IMG/VR virus record: IMGVR_UViG_3300020044_005872 | Span: 1-30,027 of that record | DNA: 30,027 bases | Source: a virus | Taxonomy: Duplodnaviria; Caudoviricetes | Strand: one strand, 5' to 3' | Part shown: piece by piece, positions 4,448 through 24,993 of the stretch | How positions within the stretch are numbered: the stretch's first letter is position 1 | Layout of the letters: each line of letters begins with the position of its first letter | Notes under the pieces: generated by a model | Seen by the model: only the letters and a program-made list of their open reading frames with translations | Database searches by the model: none | What the model was told of the DNA's origin: nothing | Program-made: the position numbers and the translations under genes

Positions 4448-4665
4448 TGGCAAATTACTTTCCAACATATCGTCGTGGTGAAAGCCTTACAGGGTATGCT
4501 CAACGATGCTCAAGTAGTCCTGATTTGGTAAAGGTTGTCCCATCACCAAGTGCTCGTATTGAAGTTTGTAGAGAACACGCACAGGAAGTGAGGGAGTTTT
4601 CCCCGAGCCAACCATTTTCACAAAATGGTAAAAGCGTTCCATCAGTCCGTGATGTGAATGGTTAA
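4447..4665 (+). CDS. Small two-Cys protein (72 aa, MANYFPTYRRGES...)
   Basis: TAATG overlap gives a start at 4447; the GES...RC...A..C motif also occurs as a module in 22633-24993. Confidence 0.7.
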   Translation: MANYFPTYRRGESLTGYAQRCSSSPDLVKVVPSPSARIEVCREHAQEVREFSPSQPFSQNGKSVPSVRDVNG

Positions 4666-4801
4666 ATTGGTGGTATTCCCTCCCATATTTTAGATAGAAA
4701 CATTCATAGGTAATCTTACCTGTGTGCGTGGATTGTAATACATTTACCTTGAAGTAATTATCCTTCAGGGTTATTGTCGTGCTCCTAACTATTTCTACCA
4801 T
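4487..4801 (-). CDS. Hypothetical protein; the only supported minus-strand gene, probably leaderless
   Basis: ATG lies 4 nt downstream of a minus-strand TATATTTG; fills the otherwise empty 4666-4801. Confidence 0.55.
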   Translation of the reverse strand: MVEIVRSTTITLKDNYFKVNVLQSTHTGKITYECFYLKYGREYHQFNHSHHGLMERFYHFVKMVGSGKTPSLPVRVLYKLQYEHLVMGQPLPNQDYLSIVEHTL

Positions 4802-4837: not shown

Positions 4838-4867
4838 TTGACTTTTGATACAAATGGAACTATTTAT
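4838..4867 (+). promoter_or_regulatory. Putative early promoter TTGACT-N17-TATTTAT, back-to-back with the minus-strand promoter
   Basis: AACTTGAC is shared with the promoter at 8453; TATTTAT at 4861-4867. Confidence 0.55.
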
Positions 4868-4879
4868 TGTTATACCGAA

Positions 4880-5059
4880 ATGATTATGAAAGACAAAGAA
4901 AACAAAACCCCACAAAATCTTCGTTCTAACGAAGTCAAAAAGACATTACACATAAGAGCATCAAAAGATGTCCGTGATGAGTTATACACACGGGAAAAGA
5001 ACTTGAAACGGGAGGATTACTTCCTCAACCTACAAGACCAATTAACCTATCTAAAATAA
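4880..5059 (+). CDS. Small hypothetical early protein (start 4880 or 4886)
   Basis: ATG downstream of the promoter; the TTG at 4838 is part of the promoter. Confidence 0.7.
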   Translation: MIMKDKENKTPQNLRSNEVKKTLHIRASKDVRDELYTREKNLKREDYFLNLQDQLTYLK

Positions 5060-5067
5060 ATTAAATT

Positions 5068-5301
5068 ATGGCACACCTTAAACTAACCGCACAGAAAGTA
5101 AGAAACATCAAGAAACACATTCTTACAGGAGAATTAACACACGAAGAAATCGCTAAAAAGTATGGAGTAAGTCGTCCGCTCATTACCAAGATACATTTGG
5201 GAATGATTGACCCTACTCACAAAAACGCTCGTTGGGGACATATTGTGGTTCAACCTGAAGAAAACCTTGAAGAGATTTTTAAGGTAAGTGATTTTAAGTA
5301 A
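5068..5301 (+). CDS. Helix-turn-helix DNA-binding protein
   Basis: LTHEEIAKKYGVSRPLITKI HTH pattern. Confidence 0.8.
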   Translation: MAHLKLTAQKVRNIKKHILTGELTHEEIAKKYGVSRPLITKIHLGMIDPTHKNARWGHIVVQPEENLEEIFKVSDFK

Positions 5302-5302
5302 T

Positions 5303-6034
5303 ATGTCTAAAACAGGATACATAATATTTAACAATTATTTTGATTTCAAGAACTATGAAAATATCCTAATGTCTTTGATTGTAGGATTACATCGTTCAGG
5401 AAAAAGTATTTGTTTCAGTAATGGATATGCCGCTGTAAAATGCGGTGTATCCACCCGAACAATTACTGATACTTTGAAACGATTTGTTGATGAGGGGTTT
5501 ATTTCCATTCACTTCTTGAAGGGGAATTACAGAATAATCAAATTGTTAAAGACCCCTCTAATCTATGAGGATACTGAAGAATGTGGTATAGAAAACAATT
5601 CTACACCTATAGAAGAGAGTTCTACACCTATAGAAGAGAGTTCTATACCTATTGAACTGGGTTCTACACCTATAGAACACACTTCTAACAATAATATAGA
5701 TAATAATAAAGATTATAATACGCAACATACGACGAATGAGATTTTGATTGAGTGGAAGGAAGACAAGAGGTTCTGTAAAGTCGCCAGTATGTTTCCTGAA
5801 AACAAATTGAAGGAAGTAAAACGAGCGTATGATTATTTCTGGTTATTCTTACCTGAAAACGATAAGTTGGAAATTGAGAGGACACTACCTACCTATATCC
5901 AACGAAACCAAAGTAATAAAAATTACATAAAACAAATTGATAAGTATTTTGAGAGTAGATTTTGGATTACTGACGAAACAACTTTATCTTTGTTAAAACC
6001 AAAACAAGTTCAACCGAAAAGATTTATATTTTAA
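5303..6034 (+). CDS. Replication initiator, lambda O-like architecture
   Basis: N-terminal winged HTH (FSNGYAAVKCGVSTRTITDTLKRFVDEGFI), internal iterons, and a C-terminal helical domain ending YIKQIDKYF. Confidence 0.8.
   Translation: MSKTGYIIFNNYFDFKNYENILMSLIVGLHRSGKSICFSNGYAAVKCGVSTRTITDTLKRFVDEGFISIHFLKGNYRIIKLLKTPLIYEDTEECGIENNSTPIEESSTPIEESSIPIELGSTPIEHTSNNNIDNNKDYNTQHTTNEILIEWKEDKRFCKVASMFPENKLKEVKRAYDYFWLFLPENDKLEIERTLPTYIQRNQSNKNYIKQIDKYFESRFWITDETTLSLLKPKQVQPKRFIF
5599..5687 (+). repeat. Four 21-bp iterons (TTCTACACCTATAGAAGAGAG consensus), probable replication origin
   Basis: Copies start at 5599, 5620, 5641 and 5662; TTCTA-N6-TAGAA dyad (imperfect in copy 3); followed by an AT-rich tract at about 5688-5720. 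Confidence 0.85.
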
Positions 6035-6036
6035 TT

Positions 6037-6732
6037 ATGAAAACAAAATACACAGAAGACGGAAGGAAATATCTTATTTCCCCTGATGAGTTCCTTGAAG
6101 GATTGAGTTTATCAATCATCTTCAACCTACACAAAGTAGAAAATCCTGAAGCAATTACACTCAAGGATAAACTATGGGAAGCTGCATACATTTACCTTGA
6201 TGACGCACCAACGAATAGTGCGATATTCACTCACACTATGATTGGTTTTGATAATAAAGACGAGATGGTTTATTTTTGGATTAAAGAAGCGATTACGGCG
6301 ATTTTAAGTCATATACCCTTCAAGGAAAAGAAAGTAAAACTGGCGTGGGGAAAACCATATAAAACGGATAAATCCCTATTGGTAAGAGAAACCACCGACG
6401 GAAAGTATATTGCGTTGAAGTTCTTTACCAACGGAATTGTAATGAATAAGAAGGACTATACTATCTTATTGGAAGATTTGGGTGTGGAACTCAACGACAT
6501 TACACCAGTTCAATTTAACCGATTAGAATACGCAATCAGGAGTAGTATTGGAGACCATAGTTATTTTACCCGATACAAGAGTTTAAGATGTTTCTACGAG
6601 AGTGTTTTGACCGAGAAGGGTATTACCACAACTCAAACGAAAAGAGAGGTCAAATACGATATAAACAGAGGATTAGTTCAAGAGAACTATTTTGATTTAG
6701 AACTTGATAAAAATATTTTTATAGATATTTAA
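6037..6732 (+). CDS. Hypothetical protein following the replication initiator
   Basis: 231-aa ORF, tightly packed; no motif recognised. Confidence 0.8.
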   Translation: MKTKYTEDGRKYLISPDEFLEGLSLSIIFNLHKVENPEAITLKDKLWEAAYIYLDDAPTNSAIFTHTMIGFDNKDEMVYFWIKEAITAILSHIPFKEKKVKLAWGKPYKTDKSLLVRETTDGKYIALKFFTNGIVMNKKDYTILLEDLGVELNDITPVQFNRLEYAIRSSIGDHSYFTRYKSLRCFYESVLTEKGITTTQTKREVKYDINRGLVQENYFDLELDKNIFIDI

Positions 6733-6736
6733 TATC

Positions 6737-6816
6737 AAGGGGGGGAGGTTTGTCTTATTTTATCTTTAATCTATGACTTTCGGTTCGGCATATATTTTTT
6801 TTACTCCCCCCCTTTT
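6737..6816 (+). ncRNA. Candidate hairpin small RNA A (11-bp stem, 56-nt U-rich loop)
   Basis: AAGGGGGGGAG 6737-6747 pairs with CTCCCCCCCTT 6804-6814; loop contains TTCGGCATATATTTTTTTT. Confidence 0.5.
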
Positions 6817-6824
6817 ATAAAGTT

Positions 6825-7130
6825 ATGGAAGAACAACCTGATTTAATTGTAAGAAGAAAACGAGTTAATGACTTCGGTGAGTGGGAACACGAGTGCGTGG
6901 ATTGTGATAAATGGCTTCCCAAGAGTAAGTTTTCGGGGTGTGTTGAAAAGATTGATGCGTATGGTAATTGTTTGGTATGTGCGTCGTGTCGTCAAAAGAA
7001 CTCCAACAGAAAACGAGCAAATACAATACAAAAACAAACAGAAGAGTTTTTACTATCTATTGGATACGATAGTAAATTAGAAAAACCCATCTGGCAACAA
7101 TTCAACGATAAACACGGATTTCCCTATTAA
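6825..7130 (+). CDS. Zinc-finger-like protein
   Basis: CVDC...F..C and CLVCASC motifs. Confidence 0.75.
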   Translation: MEEQPDLIVRRKRVNDFGEWEHECVDCDKWLPKSKFSGCVEKIDAYGNCLVCASCRQKNSNRKRANTIQKQTEEFLLSIGYDSKLEKPIWQQFNDKHGFPY

Positions 7131-7144
7131 AATATTTATAAACT

Positions 7145-7432
7145 ATGAATGAAGTTATTATAACGGCTGTTATTAGTTTTATATCAACGATTGTAGGATA
7201 CAAAGTTGGTTCAAAGAAAAACAAAGCCGAAGCAAACAAAATAGAAATTGAAAATGTAAAAGAGGTTATTAGTGTCTATGTGGATACAATAAATGACCTG
7301 AAAATTGAGGTAAGAGAATTGAAGGAAAGATTGGCGACTTACCAAAAACATATTGAAAAATTAGAAGGAGAATTATATTCTTTTAGACAACAGATGGCAC
7401 CGACCACATCAAGACGAAGAACCACCAAGTAA
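7145..7432 (+). CDS. Membrane-anchored coiled-coil protein, holin-like candidate
   Basis: N-terminal hydrophobic helix VIITAVISFISTIVGY, basic patch, then heptad coiled coil. Confidence 0.55.
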   Translation: MNEVIITAVISFISTIVGYKVGSKKNKAEANKIEIENVKEVISVYVDTINDLKIEVRELKERLATYQKHIEKLEGELYSFRQQMAPTTSRRRTTK

Positions 7433-7716
7433 TGAAACTCACAATCCAAGATGTAGATGTTAAGGACATATTCAATTTACCGATTGAAGACCGAAAAGAA
7501 TTGGTAAGACAGGGAGTAGATTTGTTCTTACAACAAAGTAAAATAGGGGCATTAGTCCTCAACACATCGTTAGATGCGTATATTGATAGACACCTTATGA
7601 TACTTGAGGCAGATATGGAAAGAGAACAAAAAAACGAAAACTATGAAATGGTATGGTATTATAACGAAATTATTTGGGCGATACACGAAAAAAGAGATGG
7701 AAACTGGAATATCTAA
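7432..7716 (+). CDS. Hypothetical protein
   Basis: TAATG overlap; 94 aa. Confidence 0.75.
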   Translation: MKLTIQDVDVKDIFNLPIEDRKELVRQGVDLFLQQSKIGALVLNTSLDAYIDRHLMILEADMEREQKNENYEMVWYYNEIIWAIHEKRDGNWNI

Positions 7717-8146
7717 TTTGGAAGTAAAAAGGGACGGGACGATTTACTATAATGGTAAATTAAAGAAACCATACAATCATTCAAAGGGATACGATGTTGT
7801 GTGGTTGGAAGGTAAGAACAAAAAGGTTCATCGTGTCGTGGCAGAAACTTACATACCAAACCCCTTAAGAAAATGTTGTATAAACCACATAAACGGGGAT
7901 AAGAAGGACAATCGTGTTGAAAACTTGGAATGGGTCAGTTCAAGACAAAACAACGAACACGCACGATTAAATGGACTTCAAGAATTAAAACAACAGGGAA
8001 TACCCGACCTTACCACAGATGAGGTAAAATACATTCGTAATGAGTGTGGTAAAACCAAGAGTTGTTATAGATTAGCCAAGGAGTTCAACAGGGACTATAA
8101 AACAATAGAAAGGGTGTGTAAGGGATTGTCTTACACAGATATTTAA
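7697..8146 (+). CDS. HNH endonuclease with C-terminal HTH
   Basis: VHRVVAETYIPNP...INHINGDKKDNRVENLEWV...N; start more likely at 7697 (METG). Confidence 0.9.
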   Translation: METGISNLEVKRDGTIYYNGKLKKPYNHSKGYDVVWLEGKNKKVHRVVAETYIPNPLRKCCINHINGDKKDNRVENLEWVSSRQNNEHARLNGLQELKQQGIPDLTTDEVKYIRNECGKTKSCYRLAKEFNRDYKTIERVCKGLSYTDI

Positions 8147-8161
8147 TTTATATTTTAACCT

Positions 8162-8347
8162 ATGTGTTCCTGTAAGCAAACACCTTTCCAACGATTAGAA
8201 CGACGACTGATTAGTAGTGGTTGGTCTTCTATGACGCAGAGTGATTATCAATTACTCGGTGAATATATTTTTGGTAGATTAGGGGTAAGACCCAAAGACA
8301 ACCAAGAAACACAAATACTATATCCTGAAGCAAAAAAGGTGAAGTAA
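8162..8347 (+). CDS. Small hypothetical protein (MCSCK...)
   Basis: 61-aa ORF fitting between the HNH gene and the hairpin/terminator. Confidence 0.7.
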   Translation: MCSCKQTPFQRLERRLISSGWSSMTQSDYQLLGEYIFGRLGVRPKDNQETQILYPEAKKVK

Positions 8348-8350
8348 TTA

Positions 8351-8403
8351 AAAATCCATCTTATCTTTCTGCTGTGCCATTTTGTATGTAGATGGTGGAT
8401 TTT
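8351..8403 (+). ncRNA. Candidate hairpin antisense RNA B
   Basis: AAAATCCATC 8351-8360 pairs with GGTGGATTTT 8394-8403 (one G-U); loop 8372-8383 is the exact reverse complement of 8701-8712. Confidence 0.55.
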
Positions 8404-8405
8404 AT

Positions 8406-8431
8406 TGGGGGAACTATCCCCCATTTTTTTT
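8406..8431 (+). terminator. Intrinsic terminator
   Basis: TGGGGGA-ACTA-TCCCCCA followed by a T run. Confidence 0.85.
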
Positions 8432-8452
8432 ATAAAATGTTCCTTATGGAAC

Positions 8453-8482
8453 TTGACTTATCACAAAATGTATCTATATTTG
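8453..8482 (+). promoter_or_regulatory. Bacteroidota -33/-7 promoter TTG-N19-TATATTTG
   Basis: TTG at 8453-8455 and TATATTTG at 8475-8482 match the TAnnTTTG consensus; directly after a terminator. Confidence 0.8.
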
Positions 8483-8511
8483 TAGTATAATTAAAAACAA
8501 AACGAAACAAA

Positions 8512-8691
8512 ATGAAAAAAGAAACTTTGACCTTTGACGACTACGGAGTAATGTTGAACCTTCTTATCGCACAGAAAAACAATTTGGACTTGTTCCCCAC
8601 ACAGAACTTGGAAGTAAGAAATCAAATTGAGGCGATGATGAAGCGTTTGAAGAACACTATGGGTGAAGTAAGTAAAAACGAACAATTCTAA
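8512..8691 (+). CDS. Small hypothetical early protein, 59 aa (MKKETLTFDDYGVMLNLL...), absent from the ORF track
   Basis: Translated by hand; A-rich leader after the promoter. Confidence 0.8.
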   Translation: MKKETLTFDDYGVMLNLLIAQKNNLDLFPTQNLEVRNQIEAMMKRLKNTMGEVSKNEQF

Positions 8692-8703
8692 TATTATAAA
8701 AAA

Positions 8704-8907
8704 ATGGCACAGACAAAAGACAGACAAATCGCAGCACAGAGTTCTATGAAACTCATTCTTGATTGGAGTAATTCCTGTAATAAATGTTTAACCCTCAAAG
8801 AACTAATCGCAATTAGTAATGTAATTGTGGATTATGTGGAAAATGGTTATTCCAAAGAGATTGGGGAGAGATGTGAAAAAATACAAGAACATTTAGATAG
8901 TAAGTAA
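8704..8907 (+). CDS. Small hypothetical early protein (MAQTKDRQIAAQSSMK...)
   Basis: A-rich start region; 67 aa. Confidence 0.8.
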   Translation: MAQTKDRQIAAQSSMKLILDWSNSCNKCLTLKELIAISNVIVDYVENGYSKEIGERCEKIQEHLDSK

Positions 8908-9062
8908 TGAAGAACAAGTTTATACTTTTTGCTGAATGGGTGGGGGAAAATCATTACCATCTTTTCAACATCGCAGAAGGGGTCTATTATTGGAAAAACG
9001 AACACGACACCAAAACAACGGAAGAATTGTTTGATTTATATTTGGACGAGGTTTATATTTAA
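8907..9062 (+). CDS. Small hypothetical protein, 51 aa (MKNKFILFAEW...TTEELFDLY), absent from the ORF track
   Basis: TAATG overlap; translated by hand; the FAEW...TTxEL pattern resembles small proteins of Flavobacteria phages (from memory). Confidence 0.75.
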   Translation: MKNKFILFAEWVGENHYHLFNIAEGVYYWKNEHDTKTTEELFDLYLDEVYI

Positions 9063-9066
9063 TATT

Positions 9067-9453
9067 ATGAAACAATCCTTTTATTACCCCTTTACAGACC
9101 ATACCAACGACAATAACCTAATCGTATATGTCCGTGATGAAGATAGTGTCCCTGTGATGATTTGGAACTTCTTTGGAGGTCAAGAAAGAGTGGGTTTCCT
9201 ACACATTCTATTTGAGATGAGTGATGAAGATGGTAAAGATTGTGGTAAGGGTAGTTTGATGAAAAAAATAATCTTTAACGAAGAGTTTGATTATGAAACA
9301 ATAAAATCAAACATCGGGACAATTTGGACTACAACTGACGATTATAATTTACTATCTTTTATACAAGAAGAAAAACTCGTTGGAATGTATGACGACGAAT
9401 ACTTCAACAAAAGGGTTGAGGTTTTGGATAATCTTATTGAAAATGGTGAATAG
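9067..9453 (+). CDS. Acidic hypothetical protein (MKQSFYYPF...)
   Basis: ATG 4 nt after the upstream stop; ends in TAG. Confidence 0.75.
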   Translation: MKQSFYYPFTDHTNDNNLIVYVRDEDSVPVMIWNFFGGQERVGFLHILFEMSDEDGKDCGKGSLMKKIIFNEEFDYETIKSNIGTIWTTTDDYNLLSFIQEEKLVGMYDDEYFNKRVEVLDNLIENGE

Positions 9454-9527
9454 TCATTTCGGTTTTGTTTTCATTCTATAGAACCATTTTGAAGGTAAGA
9501 AAAAAAGTAGTGCTCCCATCATTACTT
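9432..9527 (+). ncRNA. Candidate hairpin antisense RNA C plus a second small hairpin
   Basis: AAAATGGT 9440-9447 pairs with ACCATTTT 9483-9490, extended by 9432-9437/9495-9500; loop complementary to 4874-4887 and 6037-6048; small hairpin 9505-9527. Confidence 0.55.
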
Positions 9528-9557
9528 CCCCCATCTAATTCAGGTGGGGGTTTTTTT
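9528..9557 (+). terminator. Intrinsic terminator
   Basis: CCCCCATCT-AATTC-AGGTGGGGG followed by T7. Confidence 0.85.
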
Positions 9558-9585
9558 ATTTTTGGGGTGTGTTATATTTATCAGT

Positions 9586-22632: not shown

Positions 22633-24993
22633 ATGAGGGTTTTTGAACTTTTAATTGACGACGAAGACGATATTTCAGGAATTGAAAAATTATCCATCGT
22701 GAAATCACCTGCGACACAAATGTCGTGGGAAATCTTCAACAATAAATTACCACATCAGGAATGTTTTTTTGAGGAAGATATTAACCCCGATTTATTGGGA
22801 GTAATTGATAATTACGGAACGGAACTTACACCAGACCTTTTAGAAGGTGTTGAGGTAATGGAGATTGAAGAATACAACCATAAGTTCTATTCAGTATCAT
22901 CTACCCCCAACAGAAAAGACCCTCTAAACGATTTATCTTTGGATAGTATCACAAGATATATCTATGTGATAGATAGTGGTGCTGGTAGTGTCCTAAAACC
23001 TGAAAGCAGACAATTCTGTCGTAAAATGATAGGTGCTGGTCGTGTGTATTCACGAGCTGATTTAGAGCGTATCAGTAATGAAATTGCTAGTGATAGTAAT
23101 ACCTTCAAAATTATACCTCGTCCAAAGTCAATTCCTGATGTTGATGTGTATAACTTCAAAGGTGGCAAAAATTGTTATCATCGCTATAAAGCGTTAGTTT
23201 TCAACTTGAAGGAGGGGGAAACTTACGAACAATTATTGGCTCGTATCCCAAGTCAAGCAGCTCGTGGAGTTGGTATGGCAGATGTGGTATATGAGGGAAG
23301 TGATAGACCATTCTTGAGTGAGGCATTACACTACAATATGTCCTCACAAAATGAGTTCAAGGCAAACAATTTCTTTATGGGATTATTCTACTATCCGTCC
23401 GTTATGGCGGCGTTGGTAAATGAACCCGCAGTCCGTCATTTCACAAAGGTAAAGTTTTGTGGATATGAAGGCTGGTGTCCTATGTATATCGGTGATGAAT
23501 ACTTTGAAGGTAAAGCATCGGTAATTGATAGATTTGAGGTTAGAGAAAAGTTTGAAGTCCCCACCCAAGAAATCCAAGAAATCGGTAAAAGGGTTGTTAA
23601 ATGGACTGAAGAAAATGGTTGGGGAGATTGTGGAACTGCTGTGGGTAAGACCAGAGCAAACCAACTCGCTAATGGTGATAATCTATCCCTTGAAACGATT
23701 ACCCGTATGTATTCGTATCTGTCCCGTCATAAAGTAGATTTGGAGAGTTCAACATCTTATGAAGACGGGTGTGGAAAACTTATGTATGATAGTTGGGGTG
23801 GAGAACCTGCTTTGGAGTGGAGTAAAAGAATTGTAGAAAGAGCATCACAAAAAGAGCAAACATTCGCTGTTAATAATTACAAAGGTGAAATCACCGCCGT
23901 AGTATTTGAACCTGATACATACATCTACAGATTTAGTGAGGGTAAATCCTACTATGTGTTTATGTCCGCAGAGACCATCAAGAAGGCTCTTATGAAAGTG
24001 TCCCGTTTGAAAGAAATGGGAAAACTTACCAACCTCATCAACCTTGAGCATAGTGATTATGTATTCAGCGCTGAAGATGTTTATACCTACGAAAACTGGT
24101 TGGTAGGTGAAAATCCAAAGGAGGATAAGTCATACCAAATCTTCGGTCAGGAAATGAAACCTGGCACTTGGATTACCACCATCGCATTTAAGGACAAAGA
24201 AATCTTTGAAAAGTATGTGTTGTCTAACGCTACTACTGGTATTAGTTTGGAGGGTTTTTTCCAAGAAGTCCCATTTAATTTTGGTGATGTTTCCCGTGAA
24301 AGTTTTGTTGAACCAAGAGCTGGTGAAAGTCAGGACGATTTCATTTCAAGATGTATCCCCGTGTTAATTGGTGAGGGTAAAACTCAAGACCAAGCTGCGG
24401 GAGCGTGTTATGGTATGTGGGGTCAAAAGATGGAGGTTGAAATCAACGAAGATAAGGAAATGGTTGATGGTGTAATTGACTTACTATTGAAGGTTGAAGA
24501 CCTTGAAAATAGAACAGAAATTGCTAAAGAAATTATCAGGGATTTTGCTTTGGAAGGTGTATCGTATGATTACGATGATTTCTTAAGAAGAGTTGGATTG
24601 GTTAATTTTGGTTTTGATTTTCCTGACGGAACTTGTTGGAGTGGATACGAGCCATACGGAACAAAAATCGTAGGTGGTAGAGAAGTTCCAAATTGTGTCC
24701 CGATTAAAGCATCAATTAACACAAATGGTATGACCCCTTACCTTACACCCAACGAAGATGAGTTGGAAACAAAAGAGGTCTTTGGATTTATCGGTGATAT
24801 AGGTGGGGCTCCCGCTTATTCAACGGAAAGTGGTGCCGATAGTAAGGCAAAAGAAATGGGTTGTGAAGGAACGCACTATATGGAAGGACAGGGATATTTC
24901 CCTTGTAAGACACATAAAGAGGCTGCAGACCTTTATCAATCACAAAAAATCTACGAGATGATTGTAGAAGTAATGAGTAATTACAAACAATAA
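22633..24993 (+). CDS. Multi-module prohead protein with an XkdF-like (S78-type) putative protease domain
   Basis: GIEKLSIVKSPA; YIYR...YYVFMSAETIKK...NLEH...ENWLV...GTW...GISLEGFF; directly precedes scaffold and capsid genes. Confidence 0.75.
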   Translation: MRVFELLIDDEDDISGIEKLSIVKSPATQMSWEIFNNKLPHQECFFEEDINPDLLGVIDNYGTELTPDLLEGVEVMEIEEYNHKFYSVSSTPNRKDPLNDLSLDSITRYIYVIDSGAGSVLKPESRQFCRKMIGAGRVYSRADLERISNEIASDSNTFKIIPRPKSIPDVDVYNFKGGKNCYHRYKALVFNLKEGETYEQLLARIPSQAARGVGMADVVYEGSDRPFLSEALHYNMSSQNEFKANNFFMGLFYYPSVMAALVNEPAVRHFTKVKFCGYEGWCPMYIGDEYFEGKASVIDRFEVREKFEVPTQEIQEIGKRVVKWTEENGWGDCGTAVGKTRANQLANGDNLSLETITRMYSYLSRHKVDLESSTSYEDGCGKLMYDSWGGEPALEWSKRIVERASQKEQTFAVNNYKGEITAVVFEPDTYIYRFSEGKSYYVFMSAETIKKALMKVSRLKEMGKLTNLINLEHSDYVFSAEDVYTYENWLVGENPKEDKSYQIFGQEMKPGTWITTIAFKDKEIFEKYVLSNATTGISLEGFFQEVPFNFGDVSRESFVEPRAGESQDDFISRCIPVLIGEGKTQDQAAGACYGMWGQKMEVEINEDKEMVDGVIDLLLKVEDLENRTEIAKEIIRDFALEGVSYDYDDFLRRVGLVNFGFDFPDGTCWSGYEPYGTKIVGGREVPNCVPIKASINTNGMTPYLTPNEDELETKEVFGFIGDIGGAPAYSTESGADSKAKEMGCEGTHYMEGQGYFPCKTHKEAADLYQSQKIYEMIVEVMSNYKQ

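Follow-up and report, generated by a model that had tools for sequence, protein, structure and literature searches.

Does the early region of a small phage genome carry hairpin RNAs that silence phage genes by covering their start codons? This question is raised by the virus record IMGVR_UViG_3300020044_005872 (Duplodnaviria; Caudoviricetes), a complete record of 30,027 bases that was analysed in full (hereafter the window) and compared with related viral contigs and loci (given L and G numbers where they need to be told apart). A preliminary description had placed three hairpin RNAs, here elements A, B and C, in three non-coding gaps (6737-6816, 8351-8431 and 9432-9557). The sequences and coordinates of these gaps are correct, and the single design attributed to all three did not hold: A is a single stem-loop, B a hairpin with a separate terminator, and C a weak hairpin, a small hairpin and a terminator. 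The comparison points to a real and apparently undescribed variant of phage antisense RNA, for which A appears well supported at the family level and B moderately, while C does not seem to belong to it as first described. Specifically, we lean slightly towards A and B being trans-acting antisense RNAs that repress start codons, A those of the two genes that open the replication operon, B that of the 8704 gene family. That they are transcribed as discrete RNAs, pair with their targets in the cell and thereby repress them is what we infer from the sequences.

Element A and the start codons it may pair with

In the window, region 6735-6820 folds into a single 11-bp stem with a 56-nt loop (-23.7 kcal/mol, z -2.8; Table 1). 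We surveyed 65 distinct regions upstream of genes of the 6825 family, after dropping loci with less than 130 nt upstream or without an ATG, and found a long-range helix in 59 of them and a loop of at least 40 nt in 57. These 57 A elements share a G/C stem, a U-rich loop of 42-87 nt, a promoter-like box in front and a U tract behind, and they were grouped into 33 loop lineages, between which the proteins of the 6825 family are 41-70% identical. A helix of -13 kcal/mol or below occurs in 31 of the 33 lineages and in none of 330 shuffles, at least five T are found in the 8 nt after the stem in 31, and the distance from the stem to the following ATG is 7-21 nt in every one of the 33. The TATTTA box precedes the stem in every lineage, compared with 1/33 in a control window. 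Stem letters vary across lineages with pairing kept; as the detector used for A selects for pairing, the weight rests on the shuffle control and on the fixed position. Isolated non-canonical pairs in the stems, read on the plus strand, comprise six G-U and one A-C, and the U tract lies on the 3' side of that strand; both point to the plus (sense) strand as that of the predicted RNA. Mini open reading frames (ORFs) on the minus strand of the loops were rejected as an explanation, their length and frame varying by lineage and the wobble pairs and U tracts favouring the plus strand.

Because the TATTTA box stands just before the stem, the 5' end of A is predicted at about 6737, the first stem base. 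Element A is best read as a promoter, an RNA of about 80 nt and a leaky terminator, together forming the 5' leader of the 6825 operon; the earlier assignment of A as derived from a transcript 3' end conflicts with this position behind its own promoter-like box. The loops had also been characterized by the triplet CAU, which by itself is not enriched (28/33 A loops, 24.3 expected), whereas longer, specific seeds are: UCCCAU occurs in 17 and GGCAU in 8 of 33 loops, with 1.0 expected in each case. In the window, GGCAU is found at 6787-6791. These two seeds mirror the two commonest starts of the helix-turn-helix (HTH) gene family to which gene 5068 belongs (ATGCCA in 12/32, ATGGGA in 10/32); ATGCC opens 1.4% of 1803 starts.

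The evidence that carries the proposed targets of A is comparative. Loops were permuted among lineages, and pairing with own start regions was compared with pairing to foreign ones. Own starts paired better for the HTH family (z 3.7, n=22) and for the 4880 family, the gene just upstream of HTH (z 3.4, n=8), and no own bias was seen in 13 control gene families (P 0.054-0.97). With revised sets (n=21 for HTH, n=9 for 4880), z ranged from 3.2 to 4.0 by duplex energy, local alignment and co-folding; the start-region signals of the two families stand at z 3.6-4.0 (P of about 1e-4). The signal survives the omission of any pair, stays at P 0.0007 when only the presumably transcribed bases are used, and has a median P of 0.003-0.018 when each 60% protein cluster (11 and 6 groups) contributes a single member. 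When the target window was slid along the genes, the signal peaked at the start codon (z 3.6 and 4.0) and did not exceed 2.2 at any of 14 other offsets; shuffled loops gave z of at most 2.4 in 25 rounds. The expectation that loops and targets change in step among relatives is supported for A, with two gene families of which the 5068 family had not been named before as a target and the 4880 family not as a target of A.

The loop appears modular, its 5' part tending to pair with the first gene and its 3' part with HTH, and one clade shows exact matches of 12-14 nt across the AUG of the first gene. The HTH gene lies on the opposite strand in L134, L140 and L205. In L134 this inverted gene ranks first among 58 starts as a partner of A, and since it is on the opposite strand this pairing must be in trans and not within one molecule. 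The inverted HTH genes of the three loci lie 420-460 nt from A; no rep operon was called nearby in G010. In the window, bases 1-44 of loop A form an imperfect duplex of -18.0 kcal/mol with the 4880 start, or -14.5 kcal/mol with the presumably transcribed part only. Pairing with 5068 in the window is poor (-9.3 kcal/mol, rank 16 of 22); the gene starts ATGGC here and ATGCC in the sister L157. Loop A has no exact antisense match of at least 11 nt in the window.

A scan of the window against Rfam gave six weak matches, all below the gathering score; the strongest of them, Termite-leu (31.9 versus 51 bits), aligns to the G/C stem only and was rejected. Searches of GenBank phages gave no match, and the predicted folds of 6825 and 8704, both confident models, had no PDB match (for 6825, none at E<=0.001). 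Long-loop hairpins with other anti-AUG-like seeds were also seen in more distant phages (L007 1279-1337, G004 6438-6494, G003 24722-24779, L039 2538-2607, and also L038 and L035), and no own target was found for any of these.

Elements B and C

In the fold of 8345-8435 (z -4.0) the hairpin of B is separate from the terminator behind it. The match of B to the start of gene 8704 was described correctly: it comprises 12 nt of exact antisense complementarity, a length reached by none of 12 unrelated genomes, and co-folds at -19.3 kcal/mol, the next best of 36 starts being at -11.0. None of 40 shuffled loops did as well. Judged in the same way, loop A was equalled by 26/40 shuffles, C1 by 11/40 and C2 by 38/40, and only B is beyond chance in the window taken alone. 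In a survey of 104 gene-end terminators, 87 of which have a 3' untranslated region (UTR) segment of 30-130 nt, 10 of 18 lineages carry GCCAU at the terminator that ends the 6825-8162 operon (0.4 expected), whereas it is absent from the 16 lineages at the position of C and from the 28 of other terminator 3' UTRs. Genes of the 8704 family start with ATGGC in 36 of 43 cases, and own matches of B are 12 nt long in the window, 14 in G005 and 10 in L057. Close homologues of B exist in L157 and G008, the latter with changed stems and a conserved 10-nt loop core. We regard 8704 as the likely target of B, which is less well demonstrated than the targets of A. A signal of B towards HTH (P 0.001 by energy) was rejected because it mixes two HTH families with heterogeneous duplexes.

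The C gap behaves differently. The long-loop hairpin C1 (9432-9500) folds weakly (z -0.9), with its 5' arm inside the last codons of ORF 9067-9453, and is seen only in the window and in L042, where stem letters differ and pairing is kept. The small hairpin C2 and the terminator behind it (9500-9560) fold well (z -5.1). The exact antisense matches of C reported for the starts of 6037 and 4880 do exist (12 nt for 6037; for 4880, 10 nt over the start, or 14 with one G-U, and 12 nt at +19..+30), but they are at chance level, given the 11/40 shuffles that equal C1 over the 36 starts and the 3/12 unrelated genomes that also reach 12 nt. None of 11 gene families showed own bias with elements at the C position. 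The GCUCC core of C2 is conserved in 8 of 16 C-position lineages (0.07 expected), often without CAU; the word complementary to it is scattered in start regions, and no own target of C2 was found. The same core also occurs inside the A loops of L078, L147, L150 and L155, and in L150 it pairs with the leader of the first gene. The C1 loop of the window (9453-9482) mirrors a gene start of L042 (1567-1584) exactly over 18 nt, compared with only 12 nt in its own genome.

Table 1. Features of the window that bear on elements A, B and C.
Feature	Position	Strand	Remarks
P1 promoter-like site, TTGACT/17 nt/TATTTA	4838..4866	+	before the 4880-5068-5303(rep) operon; pattern in 24 viral contigs; putative function
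4880 start region	4867..4900	+	predicted target of 5' part of loop A; first gene of operon
5068 (HTH) start region	5050..5085	+	predicted family-level target of 3' part of loop A; mismatched in the window
TATTTA promoter-like box	6726..6731	+	5 nt before element A
Element A	6737..6816	+	11-bp G/C stem (6737-6747 with 6804-6814), 56-nt U-rich loop 6748-6803, short U tract
Gene 6825	6825..7130	+	conserved, Cys-rich, probably zinc-binding; behind A in all lineages
Element B	8351..8403	+	hairpin in the 3' UTR behind gene 8162; apical loop holds the seed (8372-8383)
Intrinsic-terminator-like hairpin with U tract	8406..8431	+	behind B; G/C stem with a 3-8-nt loop
P2, TAnnTTTG box (Bacteroidota sigma-A type)	8475..8482	+	opens the next gene cluster
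8704 start region	8686..8721	+	predicted target of B; gene of 67 aa, three helices, no known fold
C1, weak long-loop hairpin	9432..9500	+	5' arm within the last codons of ORF 9067-9453
C2, small hairpin with GCUCC core	9505..9527	+	conserved part of the C gap
Intrinsic-terminator-like hairpin with U tract	9528..9557	+	before gene 9586; G/C stem with a 3-8-nt loop

Proposed mechanism, alternatives and related systems

In the proposed mechanism, an RNA of about 80 nt would be made from the promoter of A (the TATTTA box), beginning at about 6737. The two ends of this RNA would pair into the G/C stem, which would double as a leaky terminator, and read-through would give the mRNA of the 6825 operon. 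The loop would hold up to two modules, a 5' one for the 4880 family and a 3' one for HTH (the 5068 family), and pairing would block translation initiation at these starts. As the end of 5068 lies 1 nt ahead of the rep start, repression of 5068 could extend to rep through translational coupling. Element B would form the 3' end of the transcript running from 6825 to 8162, and its anti-AUG seed would be offered to the start of the 8704-family gene in the cluster that follows; small RNAs derived from 3' UTRs are a known class, which this proposed origin resembles. A more elaborate version seems quite improbable to us, namely that A is a two-way RNA switch, in which A shuts off the genes at the head of the replication operon and the binding of their mRNAs determines whether transcription continues into the 6825 operon, B silences a gene of the next cluster, and this relay times infection without Shine-Dalgarno sequences, with mismatched seeds and C1/C2 perhaps directed at rival phages that have other start-codon alleles.

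Several results weigh against antisense repression by these elements. For loop A of the window, the best partner reaches -15.5 kcal/mol and 4880 comes second at -14.2, 26/40 shuffles do equally well, and the GGCAU seed mismatches gene 5068. Among 21 lineages, seeds match the own start pentamer in ten (6.8 expected, P 0.06), and three A loops have no CAU. In 5 of 13 genomes, not all of them complete, the predicted targets rank among the four best starts. Some relatedness or composition appears to leak weakly into the own-versus-foreign statistic, because a control with HTH interiors gave z 2.2 and the reversed loop with the first gene z 2.0. For B, 8/40 shuffles reach the score of the apical part alone, and the own-versus-foreign test for 8704 (n=8) gave P 0.011 when scored on match length and 0.16 on energy, a bias that is non-significant after allowing for the 10 families tested; two lineages with an ATGAA start of the 8704-family gene still have GCCAU. 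Element C fails all target tests. A genome-wide network, as first envisaged, was not recovered either, as among 156 coding-strand gaps in 18 genomes an own match of at least 12 nt was found in 5, compared with 3.0 expected from foreign genomes. Antisense action against phage starts is supported by comparison for A, and moderately for B towards 8704. Unconstrained duplex scans of whole contigs were tried as well and discarded, being dominated by G-U-rich noise.

Part of this record would be explained if the elements were terminators or stabilising hairpins with U-rich filler, their matches stemming from U-rich loops meeting A-rich starts or from old inverted duplications nearby. The lack of CAU enrichment, the absence of a match excess over all gaps, the failure of A and C of the window to beat shuffles, and the fact that stem and U tract are the best conserved feature all agree with such an origin. 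We nevertheless find it unlikely, because specific C-rich seeds occur at fixed positions 8 to 25 times as often as expected and are missing in 28 other terminator 3'-UTR lineages, and because the covariation involves only two gene families, and in these the start codon, across lineages that differ clearly in the neighbouring protein (41-70% identity). Element A has the G/C stem and U tract of an intrinsic terminator and a loop of 42-87 nt, far longer than the usual 3-8 nt. This length would suit an mRNA-sensing attenuator resembling a molecular beacon, where the 5' end of the 4880 or HTH mRNA, binding to the nascent loop, stops the terminator stem from forming so that the 6825 operon is transcribed or translated. 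The position of A between the promoter-like box and the ATG in all 33 lineages fits such a sensor, and in four of the six regions without A the box directly abuts the ATG, so that A looks inserted into the 6825 leader. Sensing does not, however, require pairing centred on the start codons of two genes, which repression does; the predicted duplexes (-14 to -18 kcal/mol) are weaker than the closed hairpin (-23.7), and B is left unexplained, all of which makes an attenuator quite unlikely in our view.

The loops might instead be aimed partly or mainly at foreign mRNAs, either of co-infecting related phages with other HTH start alleles or of the host. In 11 of 21 lineages no seed matches the own start, and in four (L111, the window, L205 and L147) a seed fits another common HTH allele; the longer match of the C1 loop in L042 and the conservation of the C2 core without an own target point the same way. 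We hold this to be very doubtful, as own starts pair better than foreign ones overall and mosaic exchange of modules would leave the same mismatches.

Antisense repression by A and B would have precedents in other systems. The c4 RNA of P1/P7 is described as not lying opposite its target, sequences in its loops pairing with the ribosome-binding region of a phage mRNA (PMC12197685). Likewise, A (by family covariation) and B (towards 8704) have predicted loop-borne complementarity to phage initiation regions. The target of c4 is however the ant mRNA in a temperate immunity circuit, whereas those predicted here are the 4880, HTH and 8704 families, at start codons without Shine-Dalgarno sequences that lie upstream or on the other strand, and A is one giant-loop hairpin. 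While icd-ant, on which c4 acts, belongs to a temperate phage, no match to an antirepressor or integrase was found among the 37 window proteins scanned. The c4 covariance model (RF01695) had no match in the window up to E 5, and in a further scan with this model neither the window nor the control genomes gave one. The sar RNA of P22 is cis-encoded, being copied from the strand opposite its target. It has been described to block translation initiation of a phage gene by pairing (PMC12197685), which is also what we propose for A and B. These differ from sar in lying on the sense strand, 0.3-2 kb from their targets, and in their imperfect complementarity; the longest exact match is 12 nt in the window and 14 nt in relatives, which excludes full complementarity. 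StxS is reported as a small RNA that arises by early termination of a lambdoid late transcript and acts in trans (PMC7547250), and A is similarly predicted to be a short RNA between a promoter and a terminator before an operon. StxS depends according to that source on Hfq, processing and Q antitermination (PMC7547250); in A the terminator stem encloses the whole pairing region. In icaR of Staphylococcus aureus, a C-rich motif in the 3' UTR pairs with the Shine-Dalgarno sequence in its own mRNA's 5' UTR (described in PMC3868564). B and C2, but not A, resemble it in that their motif stands in a 3' UTR and is directly followed by an intrinsic terminator; the predicted partner of B differs in being the region around an AUG in the following cluster, which has a promoter of its own. 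Motifs of Bacteroidetes and c4 have been catalogued, most of them with Rfam accessions, as given in PMC2864571. Our literature search found no description of a hairpin family of the A/B type, which is not proof of its absence.

Known trans-acting antisense RNAs of phages come mostly from temperate enterobacterial phages. If the proposed reading is true, A and B would represent a conserved antisense family in phages that are small, apparently lytic and probably infect Bacteroidota, with RNA control that covers the AUG and second codon without a Shine-Dalgarno sequence. The naturally covarying RNA-target pairs would be directly testable in Flavobacterium reporters, and the compact scaffold of promoter, stem, free loop and terminator (about 80 nt) might serve for knock-down tools in Bacteroidota.

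Genomic setting and host

The scan of 37 window proteins identified a portal (2748), an HTH protein (5068, by both PHROGs and Atlas), a replication initiator (5303), an HNH protein (7697), a DNA methylase (10037) and a large terminase (11298). Start regions in the window are A-rich, and in 18 related genomes a TAnnTTTG box stands 4 nt before the ATG at 19 of 781 starts. TAnnTTTG is given as the Bacteroidota sigma-A consensus in PMC9723704, and initiation in Bacteroidota is described as relying on low structure and upstream adenines, with Shine-Dalgarno sequences not used (PMC7797042). From the A-rich starts and the spacing of this box we infer that the host belongs to the Bacteroidota. TATTTA was found 5-6 nt before the ATG at 50 of the same 781 starts, and in P1 the box lies 13 nt before the ATG of 4880. 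The spacing of both boxes to the ATG suggests two promoter classes and many leaderless mRNAs. Starts of either type occur in the window at 2748, 7145, 9067, 9586 and 12631, and in relatives.

Divergent from P1, on the minus strand at 4487-4801, an ORF of 104 aa has TAnnTTTG 4 nt before its ATG; similar genes occur in G008 and G009, and it is possibly an early regulator. Within the rep gene, at about 5598-5690, three to four near-tandem copies of a unit of about 21 nt are found, which we take to resemble the iterons of a lambda-type origin. The ends of the contig (28969-30027 and 1-1695) are strongly C-skewed, and a gene is probably cut at this point or continues from one end to the other, since G008 has an ORF of 852 aa at the same place.

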